64,000 nt of DNA from a virus, in the IMG/VR virus record IMGVR_UViG_3300042197_004553, positions 1-64,000 of that record; one strand, given 5' to 3'. Of this stretch, positions 1,789 to 61,631 are shown piece after piece; position 1 is the first letter of the stretch, and each line of letters opens with the position of its first letter. The notes under the pieces are model-generated. The model was not told where the DNA came from and ran no database searches. It saw nothing but the letters and a program-made list of their open reading frames with translations. The position numbers and the translations under genes were made by a program.

Positions 1789-2597
1789 CGTTATTGTTGC
1801 GAATTAGCCGTTTCCGCTAATTCTCCTACACTTTCATGCAGGACCAGACTATGTCATCTTGTAGCGCCGCACGTTGCAACGGTTACACAAACCTTTTGCC
1901 GCATGTGGTGACGTCGTTAAGCCGCAGGAAATACACGCGGTGTATCGCGTGCGCCACCGACCCGACTTTAATAATTTTGGTGTGGCGTATTTTGCTGTGC
2001 GGGCTGCTTGCATTTCTGTTTTGTGCTCTAACAAATGACAGCGTCTGCAAACAGTTTCAAGATTGTCTAAAGCGTTGTTCGGGTTTTTATTTCCGCGCCC
2101 TAAACGATCTTTGTGGTGTACGACCAGTTTTTTCGTTTTGCCGCAACGAGAACACTGTTGTTCGTCACGGGCAAGTACCGCTGTGCGTTTACCGTCAAAA
2201 TGCCGCCGTTCGCGGTTAATTTTGTATTGCGGTAAAATTTCAGCGCGATATTGTTCGTACCATTGTTTTTTGGCGTTCGCTATTCTTTGACGATTTTTGT
2301 CGTCATTGCGGTAGCGATCCAAATAACAGACTTTGCACAGTCCTTTTGCCATATGTAGCCGATCAGTTCGACCACATGATTGGCAGCAAGGATACTTTTT
2401 TGACCACATCTCAAAACTCTGCTACAAGGCCCCCATTTCGAACCCACTTGGGTCCTACGATCTTTCGATCTAGTCGTTGAACCTTCCAAGTATATGGCTA
2501 CTTGGCTTGGCTGCAAGTTGCCCGGCTTACGCTGAGGGGTTTCTTGCAATTAAAGGGCTTTTCACTGATTTGTCGCCAAATCAGGGGACTGAATTCA
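1789..2597 (-). ncRNA. Group I self-splicing intron (809 nt, IA-like)
   Basis: 5' exon ends in U with P1 GGAU/UG-AAUU-CAGUCC (U.G at the splice site); P2 CUGAUUUG-GCGA-CAAAUCAG; P AAUUGCAAGAAA, Q AACUUGCAGC, R GUUCAACGACUA, S ACAUAGUC; P8 CUUGUAGC/GCUACAAG; P9 with a GAAA loop; terminal G at 1789; splicing restores VLFVD|EIEK. Confidence 0.95.
1849..2409 (-). CDS. Intron-encoded HNH homing endonuclease
   Basis: RD...CSRCG...VHHKD...NN..DNLETVCRRCH HNH motif flanked by two CxxC..H.AKGLCxxC repeats; lies in the P8 loop with its stop in the S element; AT-richer than the flanks. Confidence 0.9.
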   Translation of the reverse strand: MWSKKYPCCQSCGRTDRLHMAKGLCKVCYLDRYRNDDKNRQRIANAKKQWYEQYRAEILPQYKINRERRHFDGKRTAVLARDEQQCSRCGKTKKLVVHHKDRLGRGNKNPNNALDNLETVCRRCHLLEHKTEMQAARTAKYATPKLLKSGRWRTRYTACISCGLTTSPHAAKGLCNRCNVRRYKMT

Positions 2598-3545
2598 ATC
2601 CACAAAGAGCACACACGGAGCCATGGCGTCAATCTGCTTGAGCGCGCGTCGCATGTTGCCCTCGGACTCGCCGACGAACTTACCCATCAGACTGCCGAAG
2701 TCGAGCATGACCGTGGGCCGGCCGACCTCGTTGCCCAGCGCCTTGGCGAACTGGGACTTGCCGCAGCCCGGAGGCGACAGCAGAAGCACGCCCTTGGGTC
2801 GCTTGTCCACGTTCTTTTCGCCCTGCCGACGCATGGCGCGCAGGCAGAATTGCTTGAGGTTCTCAAGACCGCCAAGGTGCTTGAAATCTGCATCGCCGCG
2901 GTAGAGCGACAGCGTGCCGCTTTTTTCCAGCGTCTGAGCCTTGATGCCCCAGATCGTGTCGGCTTCCAACTTGTTGTTGCGGACCAAGGACAGCGCGAAC
3001 GCGTTCTCGGCCTCCTGCCGGGTCAGACCGCGGGCGGCTTCGACGACGCTGGTGACTTGGTCGTCGGTTGGCTTTTCAAACGCCGAGCCCTCGCCGAACA
3101 GGTCGTTGCAGATCGACTTGAGTTGCTCCTCGTCGGGCAACTCGTGATGAACGACGGTGAAGAGTTTTTCGACCTCGGGCTGGAGCGCCACCGTCGGCGA
3201 AATGACAACAAAATACTTGCCTTCACCTTTGCCCTGCACGACGCGGTTGGCCAGCGCTTGCACGACCTCGGGGTTGGGCAGATAGCGATGGAAATTCTTG
3301 AGCACGAGAATCTGCGTCTCGTGCGTCTTGGGCGCGTTATCCAGCGCCCGGATGGCCTGCAGCGGTCCCGGCGCCGGCGTGCCGCTGTACATCTGGCGGT
3401 CGATGTCCCAGACGTCGCAGCCCCACTTGCGCTCCTCGGCCAACTTGCGCAACGTATCCACCGCGTCGTCGCACTCCAGCGACTCGATCCAAATACCAGA
3501 AAAGCCCGCACAGACCAGTTCTTCGATTTCTTTCTTGAGCGACAT
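2598..3545 (-). CDS. Ycf46-like AAA+ ATPase, exon 1
   Basis: LGGLENLK, PKGVLLLSPPGCGKS (Walker A), KFVGESEGNMR pore loop; ends at APCVLFVD. Confidence 0.92.
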
Positions 3546-4407: not shown

Positions 4408-4709
4408 CAGCACACCACGACAACTTCGTCTTCGGTTTCAATCCACACGCGCGCACCGCAAGACAGCGGTTTTAGCGGAGAATAAACCACGCTGGACGGC
4501 CCGTTAATCGCGAGTGTGCGCGCCTTGTATGCGCGAGACCGCCACTGCACGGTGATAACCGGCGCCATTTCGTTCGGGTTTTTCTTGTTGGCCCGAATGC
4601 GCTGCTGGTCAATGTGAATACGTTTAATCGTGCCCGCAGCCATTGTAATGACTGTGCCGGGCGGATTTTCTTGTTCGGTAATCGTACAGCGAGTCAGTGT
4701 TTGACTCAT
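4407..4709 (-). CDS. Conserved phage hypothetical protein
   Basis: KRIHI.Q..IRANKK...PVITV...GPSSVVYSP.KPLSCGARVWIET resembles a common small phage protein; start uncertain. Confidence 0.7.
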   Translation of the reverse strand: MSQTLTRCTITEQENPPGTVITMAAGTIKRIHIDQQRIRANKKNPNEMAPVITVQWRSRAYKARTLAINGPSSVVYSPLKPLSCGARVWIETEDEVVVVC

Positions 4710-11070: not shown

Positions 11071-11141
11071 AGCCCCCAGAAGGAGTCAAACCCTCATCCG
11101 CTGATTACAAATCAGCCGCATTATCATTATGCTATGGGGGC
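11071..11141 (-). tRNA. trnT: tRNA-Thr(UGU), CCA not encoded
   Basis: Cloverleaf: GCCCCCA/TGGGGGC acceptor, GCAT/ATGC D stem, GCTGA-TTTGTAA-TCAGC anticodon arm, GAGGG-TTTGACT-CCTTC T arm. Confidence 0.9.
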
Positions 11142-55629: not shown

Positions 55630-56874
55630 TCATATATCCCAAAATCCGTTGTCGTTAGCGGGTTTCACAATGCGCCCAGGCGGTTTGGCCGGCGGCCGAG
55701 CCGGTCCCCCCGCAAACACGACCGGCAGCGGCGCTTCGGGGGCGGTGACTGTCAACGCCCGAATATCTGGCCCAAACTCGCCCGGCTTTTCGTACAGAAT
55801 AACGTACTGCCCAGCATCCAGGCGAACAGATTGCGTCCATCGACCATTGACCCGAGTCGTCGTCTTCCCGACAGCCAAGTTGCGGTTGATCGGTAGGCCG
55901 TGTGCATCAAAATGCGCTTTGGTAAAGATGTAAATATCGGCGCCGGTGATCGGACAGCCGTCGGCCTGCGTATAAATAAGGTTGTCGGCGCCGCCATAAT
56001 CCTGATCGACCACGACGGCCCCGCACCCGACGATTGGCAGTGTCGGGCCTTGTCGCGCCGGGGGTTCACCGCCGATTTCTAGCGCGTAGATCGGATTACT
56101 GAACGGCAACAAGCCCATTTTGACTTGGTAAACCACCGGGACGTTGCGGACTGCGGCCAGCACCTGAATGGTTTCGACCAGCCAGCGCTCGTCCGAGGCG
56201 CCGTTAATCCAAACGTCGCCTTTGTTCAACGCCGGAAACCCGATAACGCGCGCATTCACGTAGGCGTTTTCCCGGGTGGCGCCTTTTACATTGTTGTCAA
56301 TATCTTCTTGAATCAATTGCGGCGACAGGTCCCAACACTGCATGGGCAGGGTCGGGTGGAAGCCGATTTCAAAACCGGTACCGCTGCACACCGGGCAATA
56401 CGAGTCGGTCACCTCTTGGGTGAGCCCGTCGCGGCAGCGTTTGCAGGGTACGCCGTAGCGGAGCGGCTTGGCCAGATACCCGGGCGCCGAAACCAGCCGG
56501 TGCCTCAACTTTTCTTTGCGGATGATCTCGCGCACCAGCAGCCAGTCTCGCTCCGGAAGTTCACCGAAACAGTTGGCGGCCTGCGAAACATAGGTGCCGA
56601 CCGGCGTGGTGAGTTTCACGCGGTAGTGCGTCAGAATATCGTACCCGCCTTCGCGCCACGCGGGGTCGGCGGCAAAGTACGTGTTGGTGACCGGCGACCC
56701 GACGTTTTCCCAGTCAAACGAGTCGCGGACGCCAGAGCGCCCGAACTGCAGTTGAAAGGTGTAGGGCCCGGGGTCGTTAAATAGCCGCTCTAACTGCCAC
56801 CACACGCGGGTTACGCCGCGTACCATGTGGTCAACAGATACCCGGCGGAACGGGAAAATGCGAGATTGGCTCAT
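55630..56874 (-). CDS. Neck/head-closure-like protein with Zn finger
   Basis: CKRC...CPVCSGTGF; leaderless-type start. Confidence 0.55.
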   Translation of the reverse strand: MSQSRIFPFRRVSVDHMVRGVTRVWWQLERLFNDPGPYTFQLQFGRSGVRDSFDWENVGSPVTNTYFAADPAWREGGYDILTHYRVKLTTPVGTYVSQAANCFGELPERDWLLVREIIRKEKLRHRLVSAPGYLAKPLRYGVPCKRCRDGLTQEVTDSYCPVCSGTGFEIGFHPTLPMQCWDLSPQLIQEDIDNNVKGATRENAYVNARVIGFPALNKGDVWINGASDERWLVETIQVLAAVRNVPVVYQVKMGLLPFSNPIYALEIGGEPPARQGPTLPIVGCGAVVVDQDYGGADNLIYTQADGCPITGADIYIFTKAHFDAHGLPINRNLAVGKTTTRVNGRWTQSVRLDAGQYVILYEKPGEFGPDIRALTVTAPEAPLPVVFAGGPARPPAKPPGRIVKPANDNGFWDI

Positions 56875-56904
56875 AAACCAAAGTATACCTGACCGCTGAT
56901 AGCT

Positions 56905-56948
56905 AAAAAAAAGGCCGGGGAGAGTTCATGACTCTCTCCCCGGCCTTT
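56905..56948 (-). terminator. Intrinsic terminator
   Basis: GGCCGGGGAGAG...CTCTCCCCGGCC followed by T8 on the minus strand. Confidence 0.88.
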
Positions 56949-57558
56949 CCCCCAATCACCACCTTGCGGTGGGCACACTGATTCAGGGCTCGTTGTTCTC
57001 CGGTCGAGGCGGCTACACCCACGCCAACAAACGCGATGTTTGGCGGCTGCTTTTGGCAGGAATGGGGCACAACGAGAAAGCGTACCTGTGTGGGGTATGA
57101 AACTCCCGCGTTTTGCGACCAGCGCTTAACGCAAAAGTCACACAGGCGTGACAGTAGTTTTAATGGCGCCAAAGTTTACGACGGACAGGGCCCCACACCC
57201 GACTTGGCTGTCCTTCTACAACTCTGGTCTCACACTGCAAGATAACTACCTGAACCGGCGTTTCACTGGCTGGCGCATATAGGGCCAACCGGACGTCCCA
57301 GAAAGTAGTCAGAGCCCACTAACGGTGGTGTTACCAAATCACCGCGAGGCTGGCGTAACTGACAAAGTCACACCTTTGTGTCCAAGGGCTCTTCCTCGAA
57401 AGCCTTGATTCTGTTCGAACTGCCGCGCCTTTGCGACAATTCGCCGGGAATGCTGACAGAACCGACAGCGTTCCCGGCGTGGCTCCTTCGAGAACCACTC
57501 GTATAAATTAAACCTAGTTAGGGAAACGGCATACGTAGCCTCCTTTCTGGCGCCATTA
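56905..57558 (-). ncRNA. Candidate large structured ncRNA (~650 nt)
   Basis: No credible ORF; many hairpins; 11-bp long-range stem 57548-58/57161-71; ends in a terminator. Confidence 0.6.
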
Positions 57559-58983
57559 CGTAGCGAGGGCGATCTTGAAACCTTTCAGCATGGTCGGCAG
57601 ATTGGTACATCCTTGGACCATGCTGAGTTTTGACAACAATTCCGGGTTCCAATCCGGAATCATGCCCGATTCGACCGTCTCTGGCACCGCGTACTTTCCC
57701 GAAAAGTAGTTGTGCAGCCAGATCGCGCGGGTCACGCTTTTCAGTCCAATCACCTTGCGGTATTGCTCCGTGGCGTCGTGGTCGCCGATGAAGACGACAA
57801 CACGAACCCTATAACAACTCTGTCCGCCACAGACCTGATCGAACAGGCGTTCCACCTGTCCGGGGTCTGTGGCCACTGGCTTTCCGTTAAACCACGGGAT
57901 GTAGTTCTCCGTCGAGTCCACCTCGCCGTTGCTGTGGGGAAACACCAGCACGTCGGAGCCAGAAACTCCGGCGTAGCCCGCCGCGTTAGCAAGATCGCAG
58001 GCTATCTGGGCCTGCGCCTCGCAACTCGGCGATACGTCGGGAAGAAACAGCACGCACGGGCGGCCCGTCATACTGTCTTCCTTGAGAGCGTTGGGCAGCG
58101 GCCGGCGGACAACCATTCGCTGCACCAACTTTCGGGCGCTCAACACGGGGATTGGCGCAAAGTTTTCACCCGCGCTGCCTCCCCGGTCGACGAGCCGATT
58201 AATCAGGTCGGCCACCTGTTGTCGCAGTTTTGGCGGAACCCGTTGCAGCCGCCCATGGGCTCCTGCAATCGTTTTCCGCGCCACAAGAGACGGCGCCGAC
58301 GCCTGCGCCACGCGGTTGTGCGACGCTTTCCGCCGGGCCATCTGGAGATTCCGTTTTGCCGCACTAACCGAAGCACTGCCGGAGGACTGAGGGGCTTGTT
58401 TGGCGCGGGCAAGGGCGTCGCGATACGCCTGTTGCGCGGCCTTAAGCGCCTGCTGCTCGGGACTTGGCTGTGGTTTAGGGGGAACGGGTTGTGGCTGGTT
58501 CGTCTCCTGCCCAGACGCAGGACCGGTCGTCTGCGTTTGGGTCGGCTGCGCGTCGTCCGGCGACTGGGGCTGCGACCCCTGTTGCTGGCCGGCGGGCTGT
58601 GACGAATTGTTACTACTGCCGCCCGGCTGCTGTTGCTGCTGGGACTGGCCCTGACCGCTCCCGCCGCCACCGGAATTCGGCTGTTGCCGTTGCCGATTTT
58701 GTCGTTCGCGGTCCCAATTGATCGCCGACGTGACGGGCACATCAGGCCCGTACCGTCGCGCCCACGTGTCGACTCTGGACTGCACGTCGACGACGCGGCC
58801 GGTGGTAGCCTCGATGTTACCGCGTTTCACCGCGGCCCGCTCGATCGCGTATTCCGGCTCGTTCGCGACATGGCAGGCGACTTTGCTTAGCGTCTTAGGA
58901 TACGCGGAGCCGCCGAAACTCTCGCCGCAATTGCGGCGCGAGACGCTAAGCATTTTCTGCAGTTCTCGCACCGTAAGGGCCAC
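57556..58983 (-). CDS. vWA/MIDAS-domain protein with Q/G/P-rich linker
   Basis: VLFLPDVSPSC (DxSxS) and VVFIGDHD; AAGGAG SD; adjacent to a MoxR-type AAA. Confidence 0.75.
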   Translation of the reverse strand: MALTVRELQKMLSVSRRNCGESFGGSAYPKTLSKVACHVANEPEYAIERAAVKRGNIEATTGRVVDVQSRVDTWARRYGPDVPVTSAINWDRERQNRQRQQPNSGGGGSGQGQSQQQQQPGGSSNNSSQPAGQQQGSQPQSPDDAQPTQTQTTGPASGQETNQPQPVPPKPQPSPEQQALKAAQQAYRDALARAKQAPQSSGSASVSAAKRNLQMARRKASHNRVAQASAPSLVARKTIAGAHGRLQRVPPKLRQQVADLINRLVDRGGSAGENFAPIPVLSARKLVQRMVVRRPLPNALKEDSMTGRPCVLFLPDVSPSCEAQAQIACDLANAAGYAGVSGSDVLVFPHSNGEVDSTENYIPWFNGKPVATDPGQVERLFDQVCGGQSCYRVRVVVFIGDHDATEQYRKVIGLKSVTRAIWLHNYFSGKYAVPETVESGMIPDWNPELLSKLSMVQGCTNLPTMLKGFKIALAT

Positions 58984-58999: not shown

Positions 59000-59827
59000 C
59001 TAGTGTTTCCGCTTAAACTCGCCGTACAGCACGGCGCCGGGAGAAGAAATCTCCCGCTCGATCGCTCGGCGGTCCTTCTCGTCCTTGACGAGGAAGGCGT
59101 CGATCAGCGACTCAGTGTCCTCGACTGAGGTCACCAAATCGCGCGCATGCAGGAGTTCGCGCAACTCCTGCAGGCTGGGCTTGCTTTCGCCCTTGGTGCG
59201 GACGGCGTTGGCCATCTTCACCGCGAGCCGGCACGCGCCGCCGGGCGCGCCCGTGTTCTTGCGGAGCACGTCCACCTCGACGTTCTCCGGCAAGAACTCC
59301 ATCGTCACACGAAAGCAGCGGCGCTTTACTGCCTCCGGGATGTCGCCCTCCTCGTTTGCCGTGAGGACAACAAACATCCGCTTGAGGTCCGCTTGATGCA
59401 TGTGGTGCCGCGCATCAGGCACCCGGCCATGCTGGAGAAAGTCCAGAATGAGCGGGTAGAACCGGCTGCCGGCCTTTTCCACCTCGTCCAGCGTCACGAC
59501 GACGTCGTGGTGCTTTGTAGCTTTGACAGCCCGAAGCAACTGTCCGTCCATGTACGCCTCGTCGGCGTGAGTAACGCCGACCGCGACCTTGCCGATGTCC
59601 ACACCCTGATTGACCTCCTCATTGGTCAACCACGGGTGGCAGGGGATGAAGAACTGCTTTGCACCCCTGCCGCGGGCGAAACAGTCGGCAAAGAATGTCT
59701 TGCCCGTGCCGGGCGAGCCGACCAGCAAAACCGCCCGCATCGTCGCCGTGATCAGCGACAGCCAGCGGGCCGCCAGCGACTCACCGCGGCGAGCGTAGTA
59801 ATCGGGCAGCAATGTGTTCGTCGACAT
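59000..59827 (-). CDS. MoxR/dynein-related AAA+ ATPase
   Basis: GSPGTGKT, VTLDEVEK, VLTAN, EAVKRRC. Confidence 0.88.
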   Translation of the reverse strand: MSTNTLLPDYYARRGESLAARWLSLITATMRAVLLVGSPGTGKTFFADCFARGRGAKQFFIPCHPWLTNEEVNQGVDIGKVAVGVTHADEAYMDGQLLRAVKATKHHDVVVTLDEVEKAGSRFYPLILDFLQHGRVPDARHHMHQADLKRMFVVLTANEEGDIPEAVKRRCFRVTMEFLPENVEVDVLRKNTGAPGGACRLAVKMANAVRTKGESKPSLQELRELLHARDLVTSVEDTESLIDAFLVKDEKDRRAIEREISSPGAVLYGEFKRKH

Positions 59828-61598: not shown

Positions 61599-61631
61599 GA
61601 AAGGGCTGACCGTTAAACGGCCAGCCCTTTC
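61599..61631 (-). terminator. Terminator of the capsid operon
   Basis: GAAAGGGCTG...CAGCCCTTTC hairpin followed by TGTTT; TATACT at 61587-92 follows. Confidence 0.7.

Follow-up and report, generated by a model that had tools for sequence, protein, structure and literature searches.

An uncultured virus carries a stretch of about 654 nucleotides (nt) between two genes, on the minus strand at positions 56,905 to 57,558 of the 64,000 nt analysed here (the window: positions 1 to 64,000 of IMG/VR record IMGVR_UViG_3300042197_004553). A first-pass annotation, made from the letters of the window, took it for a large structured non-coding RNA of no known family lying behind genes for an AAA protein and a vWA protein. 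That proposal is supported by the analysis given below: the element is almost certainly a real, conserved structured RNA, and it very probably lies outside every described family, making it a strong candidate for a hitherto undescribed class of large structured RNA. The record that contains the window is 79 kb long and is judged by CheckV to be 39% complete, so the phage genome should be roughly 200 kb. The carriers of the RNA are a sub-lineage of uncultured freshwater jumbo phages. All genes around the RNA are on the minus strand and form part of a tail/baseplate module. Read along that strand, they are a gene of 332 amino acids (aa), small open reading frames (ORFs), the AAA+ gene, the vWA gene, the 654-nt gap, a 414-aa gene, and a 236-aa gene. 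The main features are:

61565-60567, minus strand: 332-aa gene (p332), a conserved virion gene upstream of the cassette
59000-59827, minus strand: gene for a NorQ/MoxR-type AAA+ ATPase, 275 aa (Pfam AAA_5, 1.6e-13; nearest solved chain NorQ, 9qhd_A, 1.1e-6)
57556-58983, minus strand: gene for a vWA/MIDAS protein, 475 aa, directly upstream of the RNA, with an invariant D-x-S-x-S
56905-57558, minus strand: the whole RNA element, about 654 nt, between the vWA stop codon (57556-57558) and the start of the 414-aa gene (56874)
55630-56874, minus strand: 414-aa gene (p414), a conserved virion gene downstream of the RNA

Position i of the RNA is 57559 minus the window coordinate.

Relatives of the element are reached by way of its protein neighbor. 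A search for related loci with the single vWA protein found none, while an alignment of vWA proteins recovered 11 IMG/VR loci and 2 metagenome contigs, and no loci among GTDB genomes. In every retrieved locus AAA and vWA are followed by some 580-770 nt of gap (more in L012, which has an extra ORF there) and then by two genes, of about 420 and about 240 aa. Started from the window RNA and continued with a profile, nhmmer matches that gap in every one of these loci; with the window RNA, the same gap is found in other phages with E values from 7e-27 to 4e-9. The RNA varies from about 555 to 710 nt across homologues. The vWA proteins of its carriers are only 36-62% identical, yet the RNA contains invariant blocks. 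The comparisons below use nine full-length, non-redundant sequences (the window, L003, L004, L006, L007, L010, L012, L014, and L111), with L015 as a partial tenth, all from one phage lineage. Three RNA-motif scans of IMG/VR gave many chance matches plus L111, a contig already known through its vWA gene, and a similar scan of GTDB genomes gave 7 chance matches and no member. Cultured phages gave no match by blastn with the RNA or by tblastn with the vWA protein, and no second copy of the RNA was found in the genome record of the window phage itself. One contig deserves a separate remark: in the 198-kb L111/L005 (IMGVR_UViG_3300032298_001038), the vWA gene lies at one end and the RNA and 414-aa gene at the other, a split that fits a circular or circularly permuted genome.

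Is the gap really without a gene? It had been singled out for lacking a credible ORF, and there is indeed no conserved reading frame in the minus strand of 56905-57558. One might still imagine a decayed or unrecognised protein gene, for example the 89-codon frame at 57172-56903, and each genome does offer ORFs of 55-93 codons, but their places and frames differ from genome to genome. The six-frame translations of the nine sequences resemble one another in every frame, with the similarity switching frame along the element, and no frame is open throughout in any two of the genomes. What is conserved, therefore, is the nucleotide sequence and not a protein. Substitutions in the helices are compensatory rather than periodic, and the 89-codon frame passes straight through the terminator hairpin. 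A decayed end of the vWA gene fares no better: 93 homologues in the databases have the same length as the protein and match it with 100% coverage, so the vWA of the window is complete and nothing has been spliced onto its end. I give a protein gene, decayed or not, next to no chance.

The folding of the element is more stable than its composition would lead one to expect. The minimum free energy of the minus strand is -275 kcal/mol, with z = -4.66 against dinucleotide shuffles (-5.69 on a re-run), and the corresponding values across all nine homologues range from -3.7 to -10.6. By energy alone the plus strand folds equally well. The nine-sequence model, with 100 G.U pairs as against 30 A.C pairs, bears on the strand: the excess of G.U points to the minus strand, that of the genes, as the RNA strand, which is the one the first-pass annotation had folded.

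The case for structure rests chiefly on covariation. RNAalifold, given a MAFFT alignment made without regard to structure, proposed 88 pairs, 50 of them with compensatory change. Curation removed one artefact, a pairing of the Shine-Dalgarno sequence (SD) with the terminal U-run that consisted only of A-U and G-U pairs with a homopolymer, and added two pseudoknots (PK1 and PK2), leading to a model of 114 pairs in 17 helices. In this model 85.2% of the positions concerned are paired, compared to 71.1% after shuffling (none of 500 shuffles was as high) and 38-46% when the strands are slid by 1-3 columns. Both sides have changed in 71 of the 114 pairs, as opposed to 40 in shuffles, and the covariation score is 0.437 versus 0.200. 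Long-range helices were judged in a second manner, by comparing the duplex energy of strands from the same genome with that of strands taken from different genomes, over 20000 permutations. The two strands of PK1 pair at -10.4 kcal/mol within a genome and -6.4 between genomes (1 permutation in 20000 as good), and those of PK2 at -5.6 and -2.1 kcal/mol (0 in 20000). Homologues and abundant compensatory change were what the proposal of a structured RNA had called for, and the element displays what is expected of structured non-coding RNAs in general, covarying structure with no conserved reading frame. The RNA folds into two domains, a 5' domain (RNA 1-398, closed by helix P1) and a 3' domain (RNA 409-654), whose parts, from 5' to 3', are:

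57548-57558, minus strand: 5' strand of P1 (UAAUGGCGCCA), overlapping the vWA stop codon
57518-57544, minus strand: SD GGAGG (57543-57539), a 6-nt spacer, and the mini-ORF AUG CCG UUU CCC UAA (MPFP and stop, 57532-57518), conserved
57479-57498, minus strand: hairpin GUGGUUCU/GGAGCCAC, an insertion specific to the window phage
57444-57477, minus strand: P2 hairpin (CCGGGAACGCUG / CAGCAUUCCCGG), with 7 of 11 pairs changed on both sides; its loop forms PK1
57456-57463, minus strand: 5' strand of PK1, the P2 loop GGUUCUGU, backed by the strand-energy test and covariation
57407-57414, minus strand: 3' strand of PK1, ACAGAAUC, just before P3, backed by the strand-energy test
57385-57406, minus strand: P3 hairpin, covarying, whose loop CGAGG (57398-57394) forms PK2
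57374-57383, minus strand: single strand GGACA(N)AAAG linking P3 to P4, conserved, with invariant columns
57352-57374, minus strand: P4 hairpin, covarying, with a 9-base-pair (bp) stem and the loop UUGUC
57345-57349, minus strand: 3' strand of PK2, CCUCG, just 5' of P5; all 4 counted pairs change on both sides
57323-57344, minus strand: P5 hairpin (CGGUG ... CACCG), the weakest helix, whose core GG/CC never varies
57255-57301, minus strand: P6, an outer helix around an invariant internal loop; 6 pairs never vary
57169-57227, minus strand: P7, a long hairpin, 10 of its 13 pairs changed on both sides, in which the internal loop GUAG / GUAAA is conserved
57161-57171, minus strand: 3' strand of P1 (UGGCGCCAUUA), whose first 3 nt have an alternative pairing in the base of P7
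57081-57150, minus strand: P8 hairpin (CACGCCUGUGUGA / CCACACAGGUACG), with 8 of 11 pairs changed on both sides and a tip specific to the window phage
56989-57076, minus strand: P9 (CUCGUUGU / ACAACGAG), enclosing P9a and P9b, the most sequence-conserved part of the RNA
56949-56988, minus strand: P10 (CCCUGAA / UUGGGGG), tip CCACC-GCAA-GGUGG, with 6 of 7 pairs changed on both sides
56905-56945, minus strand: P11 hairpin and U8, an intrinsic terminator with a 14-15-bp G+C stem, covarying
56875-56904, minus strand: restart promoter-like motif (AGCTATCAGCGGTCAGG TATACT), outside the RNA, with the ATG of p414 coming 7 nt later

All the hairpins named in the first-pass annotation are found in the fold of the window. 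P2 (CGCCGGGAA/UUCCCGGCG), P8 (CCUGUGUG/CACACAGG), P9, and the tip of P10 are conserved and covary in the relatives; the hairpin at 57498-57479 is present as described, but it is special to this phage, one of several variable hairpins inserted at the tips (two of them specific to the window phage). The 10-nt sequence GUGUGACUUU, reported to occur twice, does so, at RNA 186 and 416. One copy belongs to the 5' strand of P4 and the other to that of P8, and neither strand keeps its sequence among relatives. About 0.2 exact 10-mer repeats are expected in 654 nt, so I treat the repeat as chance and discard the idea that it has a function.

Some details of the individual helices are worth recording. 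In a contig from a relative with 88% identity, P4 has changed at 57356, 57360, 57366, and 57372, in each case with preservation of the pair, including a change from U-A to C-G. The internal loop of P6 has GGGACGUC (57299-57292) opposite GAAACGCC (57264-57257), both invariant; the inner stem of P6 ends in a GNRA loop in 4 relatives, and in the window phage it is extended. The P9b hairpin, GUWRCCGYC...CGG, is highly conserved. A pairing of the P4 loop with the GGACAA strand was considered and rejected, being without covariation and sterically implausible. The same loop (CUUGUC/CUCGUC; 57361-57366) resembles the 5' strand of P9 and could in all genomes pair with the 3' strand of P9 (56989-56996). 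The resemblance could mean an alternative pairing or mimicry at the tertiary level; since the pairing is mostly wobble, covariation does not help to decide.

At the 5' edge, the 11-bp stem that had been noted (57558-57548 with 57171-57161), here called P1, is real, and it is the best-supported of the long-range helices. MAFFT does not align P1 in register, so it was examined by means of strand energies: -18.2 kcal/mol for strands of the same genome versus -11.1 for strands of different genomes, with none of the 20000 permutations as good. Compensatory changes can also be seen by eye in L003, L111, L004, and L010. The last 3 bp of P1 compete with the base of P7. That the stem starts exactly at the vWA stop codon is true of the window; in relatives it starts from 0 to about 30 nt after the stop.

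Within the loop closed by P1 and close to its 5' strand comes a tiny reading frame. Eight of the nine genomes share its layout: an SD, a spacer of 5-7 nt that is not conserved, a start codon, 2-4 further sense codons (3-5 in total), and a stop. It has been deleted in L014. The peptides are MPFP (four times), MNFT, (M)FT, MHWPR, and MTWP, conforming to the pattern M-x-(F/W)-(P/T)-stop, and the proline codons of MPFP vary synonymously (CCG/CCC/CCA for the first and CCC/CCU for the second). Conservation of both SD and mini-ORF is the signature of a genuine translation start, which suggests that the mini-ORF is translated. A C-terminal proline slows the termination of translation, and a ribosome bound near the 5' end of an RNA can stabilise what lies downstream; either effect may apply here. 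A ribosome on the mini-ORF site would cover the 5' strand of P1, so translation of the mini-ORF and closure of P1 are likely to be mutually exclusive.

At the other edge, the strong terminator that had been said to end the unit is there, a 14-15-bp G+C hairpin followed by U8 at 56945-56905. A hairpin with a U-run closes the element in 7 of the 9 genomes; the U-run lies 14 nt past the hairpin in L004 and L111. L012 and L014 have a P11-like hairpin (loop GCUAGCC) and then a separate terminator. After the terminator comes the promoter-like motif, of which there is only one exact copy in the window. It ends unrelated inserts at the same site as well (L200, L202, L215, L217, L220, and L222, near 4440-4500), and inserts of all kinds end in the same series: a hairpin, a T-run, TTTTTTTTAGCTATCAGCGC (AGCTATCAGCGC), 6-8 nt, and TATAAT. 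The motif is accordingly a restart promoter and no part of the RNA, and the conserved TTTAGCTATCAGCG was ruled out as a component of the RNA on the same grounds. In several genomes the ATG comes only 6-8 nt past the box that resembles a -10 sequence, and the message from the restart promoter is possibly leaderless. The shared module of terminator and restart promoter may mediate the exchange of cassettes. Two further observations belong with these junctions. In L012 (5681-6159) the RNA is separated from the 436-aa gene by an extra 129-aa ORF, with a second restart motif after it (L012:6121-6159). In the window, at 61599-61631 on the minus strand, just upstream of the 332-aa gene, there is a terminator-like hairpin of 15 bp and then TATACT, a further terminator/promoter junction in the structural operon.

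With both edges in hand, one can ask whether the element is merely an elaborate 3' untranslated region (UTR), acting in cis to guard the AAA-vWA message from 3' exonucleases, to tune translation or termination of vWA by way of P1 and the mini-ORF, and to insulate the virion operon. Its placement would suit such a role: it begins at or just past the vWA stop codon, with P1 overlapping that codon in the window, no promoter or terminator was found between the two, and it finishes in a terminator followed at once by a restart promoter, as do other inserts at the site. But those other inserts manage with a simple hairpin and U-run, and the separate second terminator that follows P11 in L012 and L014 argues that the body of the RNA is not simply a terminator. 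Sixteen covarying helices, two pseudoknots, and invariant loops, maintained across vWA proteins 36-62% identical, go well beyond what stabilisation or insulation needs. I consider a purely cis-acting role improbable.

If it is an RNA with a life of its own, does it belong to a family already described? The Rfam check leaves the novelty intact, there being no Rfam 15 family in the element at the gathering threshold or, beyond noise, at E<=10. At the gathering threshold, cmscan of the window found only a group I intron and a tRNA, both elsewhere; at E<=10, cmscan of 56700-57800 found only microRNA and small-RNA noise on the terminator hairpin; and at E<=5 the seven homologous loci searched had no Rfam match within the element. 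The models for GOLLD, ROOL, OLE, HEARO, and raiA had no match in either the window or the seven loci. RNase P RNA can be set aside, no model for it matching at E<=10, as can tmRNA, for which ARAGORN found nothing in 56500-58000 and Rfam no match, and the mini-ORF has its own SD and AUG. Y RNA was likewise rejected: it has no Rfam match here, and the adjoining protein is without a TROVE match, only its vWA domain resembling that of Ro60. The two genuine Rfam matches are worth noting in their own right: the tRNA gene at 11071-11141 (minus strand, 63.2 bits), and the group I intron at 1825-2607 (minus strand), which matches the full-length model with 72.6 bits and is flanked by ORFs that suggest an interrupted gene.

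A long-range stem that begins at a stop codon, in a window that has a true group I intron, does bring to mind a self-splicing intron, a different ribozyme, a mobile RNA element, or translational bypassing within vWA. The Rfam intron and ribozyme models give nothing at E<=10, however, and the group I and group II models that are silent at the element include the one that scores so well at 1825-2607. The vWA protein is complete, ending where all 93 homologues end, and no conserved or exon-like frame lies downstream. Nor is the element scattered, its position within the cassette being fixed. I regard all of these possibilities as very improbable.

The distribution of the RNA gives a clue to its company. 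A search with an alignment of the 414-aa protein collected 43 IMG/VR loci that hold p414. The RNA is present in 12 of them (8 distinct plus the window), and these are exactly the loci that have AAA and vWA; in the other 31 none of the three was found. Where the cassette is absent, p332 and p414 are next to each other, with 6-57 nt separating them, or have small ORFs of unrelated kinds between them. An all-or-none distribution of this sort means that AAA, vWA, and RNA make up one accessory cassette at an insertion hot spot: small ORF(s), AAA+, vWA, RNA, and terminator, set between p332 and p414, both conserved virion genes. Mapped onto the p414 tree, the cassette takes 2 changes, and 1 is not excluded, so the co-occurrence would fit a single insertion after which the three were kept together through deep divergence. 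Concerning the site itself, the p332/p414 junction in L190-L224 (before position 4501) is empty in many cases and in others holds 600-1400 nt with ORFs of 100-190 aa unrelated to AAA or vWA. The 414-aa protein is 51-73% identical over the 43 loci, much better conserved than vWA, and has an invariant C-x-x-C ... C-x-x-C at residues 144-163, probably a zinc site; it matched no Pfam or PHROG family.

What kind of proteins accompany the RNA? An AAA_5-type ATPase next to a protein of MIDAS/vWA fold constitutes a MoxR/NorQ-vWA pair. The C-terminal part of the 475-aa protein has a vWA-like fold, with the MIDAS residues D316, S318, and S320 invariant. The matches of the modelled fold to MIDAS/vWA domains are weak to middling. 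The best structural neighbor is the vWA domain of an RNA-binding Ro60 of a Thermus phage (9l5y_B), a borderline match with Z 8.2 and a root-mean-square deviation of 3.6 over 141 residues, followed by the MIDAS domain of Rea1 (Z 7.2) and Rsr of D. radiodurans (6.8). Foldseek found no match to the model in the PDB at E<=0.001, and the protein has no TROVE or other Pfam match. Residues 171-270 are helical, with a net charge of +12 to +18 in all 22 homologues. Residues 100-170, between a confident N-terminal domain of 100 residues and the basic helical segment, form a low-complexity linker rich in Q, G, S, and P (predicted local distance difference test below 50).

I propose, tentatively and at something short of an even chance, that the RNA works with the AAA and vWA proteins as a ribonucleoprotein, the partner of a NorQ-like AAA+/vWA remodeller. 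In favor of this are the strict co-retention of the three, the basic segment of the vWA protein, the vWA of Ro60 as nearest structural neighbor, and the tie between MoxR-vWA pairs and the assembly of virions. Several considerations weigh on the other side. A single insertion can explain the co-occurrence, so linkage by itself is no proof that the three act together. As for Ro60, the match is at a level that unrelated models often reach and extends to a generic vWA fold only, there being no TROVE ring as judged by the lack of a Pfam match. What the basic helical segment binds could be DNA or the ATPase instead of RNA. The conservation of the mini-ORF (CCN UUU CC) may partly reflect pairing of CCNUUUCC with GAAAGG upstream. 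Finally, I know of no MoxR-vWA system that uses RNA, nor of any RNA component described for such pairs.

Suppose instead that the RNA has a function independent of the proteins and hitch-hikes in their cassette, either as an RNA-only cage or multimer or as a decoy or sponge for some factor of the host: a defence sensor, an RNase, or ribosomes caught by the strong SD and a mini-ORF slow to terminate at its proline and stop codons. It has the size, the pseudoknots, and the GNRA loops usual in ornate phage RNAs that build RNA-only nanocages (bioRxiv 10.1101/2024.12.08.627333). The invariant internal loops of P6 and the conserved joining strands suggest tertiary or intermolecular contacts, the SD and mini-ORF persist in nearly all genomes (8 of 9), and many genes for interaction with the host reside, like this RNA, in accessory cassettes at insertion hot spots. 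But no solo copy, without AAA and vWA, turned up in the pattern scans of IMG/VR and GTDB or by nhmmer over the 31 cassette-free relatives; and the RNA is not near tRNA genes, as GOLLD and ROOL are. An independent function strikes me as possible, if on the unlikely side.

The partnership with the AAA+/vWA pair, to return to it, would work as follows. The RNA would be transcribed together with the AAA-vWA message, no terminator intervening and P1 lying 0-30 nt past the vWA stop, and its transcript would end at its own terminator, with the restart promoter resuming transcription of the virion genes. Ribosomes leaving vWA, or loading on the strong SD, would translate the mini-ORF of 3-5 codons that abuts P1, and a ribosome held at this 5' edge might protect the end of the RNA or time the closure of P1. 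The folded RNA would then serve as the dedicated partner of the AAA+/vWA pair, whether scaffold, cofactor, or substrate, the pair itself being probably a chaperone of virion assembly, as is thought for the MoxR-vWA pairs of other large viruses. A bolder version, unlikely in my estimation but worth stating, has the RNA as an obligate subunit of the AAA+/MIDAS machine, a scaffold or cage which the ATPase loads, remodels, or opens and which engages a ribosome through the mini-ORF at its 5' edge. Were that so, a MoxR-vWA system would for the first time have a large RNA cofactor of its own, put to use in virion assembly or takeover of the host.

Large, intricate RNAs of bacteria and phages are rare (OLE, GOLLD, ROOL, HEARO, raiA), and each has opened new biology or a new RNA architecture. 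Here a mere nine sequences provide strong comparative support and a clear model with two domains and two pseudoknots. Unlike GOLLD and ROOL, the RNA comes with obvious candidate protein partners in the same cassette, so that its function can be tested directly, without culture of the phage. The arrangement suggests that RNA can be a working partner of MoxR-vWA remodellers, most of whose substrates are unknown.

How do known systems compare? The borders of the cassette recall PeSL elements, promoter/stem-loop cassettes that flank accessory genes in T4-type phages. There too inserts at one site end in a hairpin and a conserved promoter that restarts the operon, but the likeness concerns the borders of the cassette and not the RNA.

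The RNA itself is most like GOLLD (RF01998) and ROOL (RF03087), sharing with them a size in the class of about 600-800 nt, many helices, pseudoknots, residence in phages, and no obvious role in coding for protein. ROOL and GOLLD form RNA-only nanocages, and GOLLD is reported to bind ribosomes in pull-down assays (bioRxiv 10.1101/2024.12.08.627333). The RNA described here differs in matching neither model, in its linkage to an AAA+/vWA pair rather than nearness to tRNA genes, and in its start at an SD and mini-ORF. The comparison is best taken as an analogy of kind, with no homology.

A second analogy is to Ro60 and Y RNA. Ro60, a protein with TROVE and vWA/MIDAS domains, and Y RNA are encoded side by side in bacteria and some phages (PMC4201824, PMC12135203). 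Here also a vWA/MIDAS protein is encoded immediately next to a structured RNA, both on one strand, and the vWA of a phage Ro60 is the top structural neighbor. Y RNAs, however, are about 100 nt long, with a terminal stem that binds Ro and often a tRNA-like module, as against about 600 nt for this RNA, and Ro60 has a TROVE ring and PNPase or RtcB for a partner, whereas the protein here has an AAA+ partner and no TROVE (no Pfam match). Membership fails on every feature tested, so the likeness is an analogy only.

The proteins of the cassette have closer counterparts. A MoxR-vWA pair is reportedly needed for tail assembly in Acidianus two-tailed virus and has been proposed to aid virion assembly in jumbo phages (PMC7824862), and such pairs have been linked to virion assembly in large viruses (PMC7824862, PMC2147016). 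In Acidianus two-tailed virus and the group 2.2 jumbo phages, as here, an AAA_5/NorQ ATPase is followed by a MIDAS protein, in or near the genes of the virion. What sets the present pair apart is the conserved 600-nt RNA that shares its cassette.

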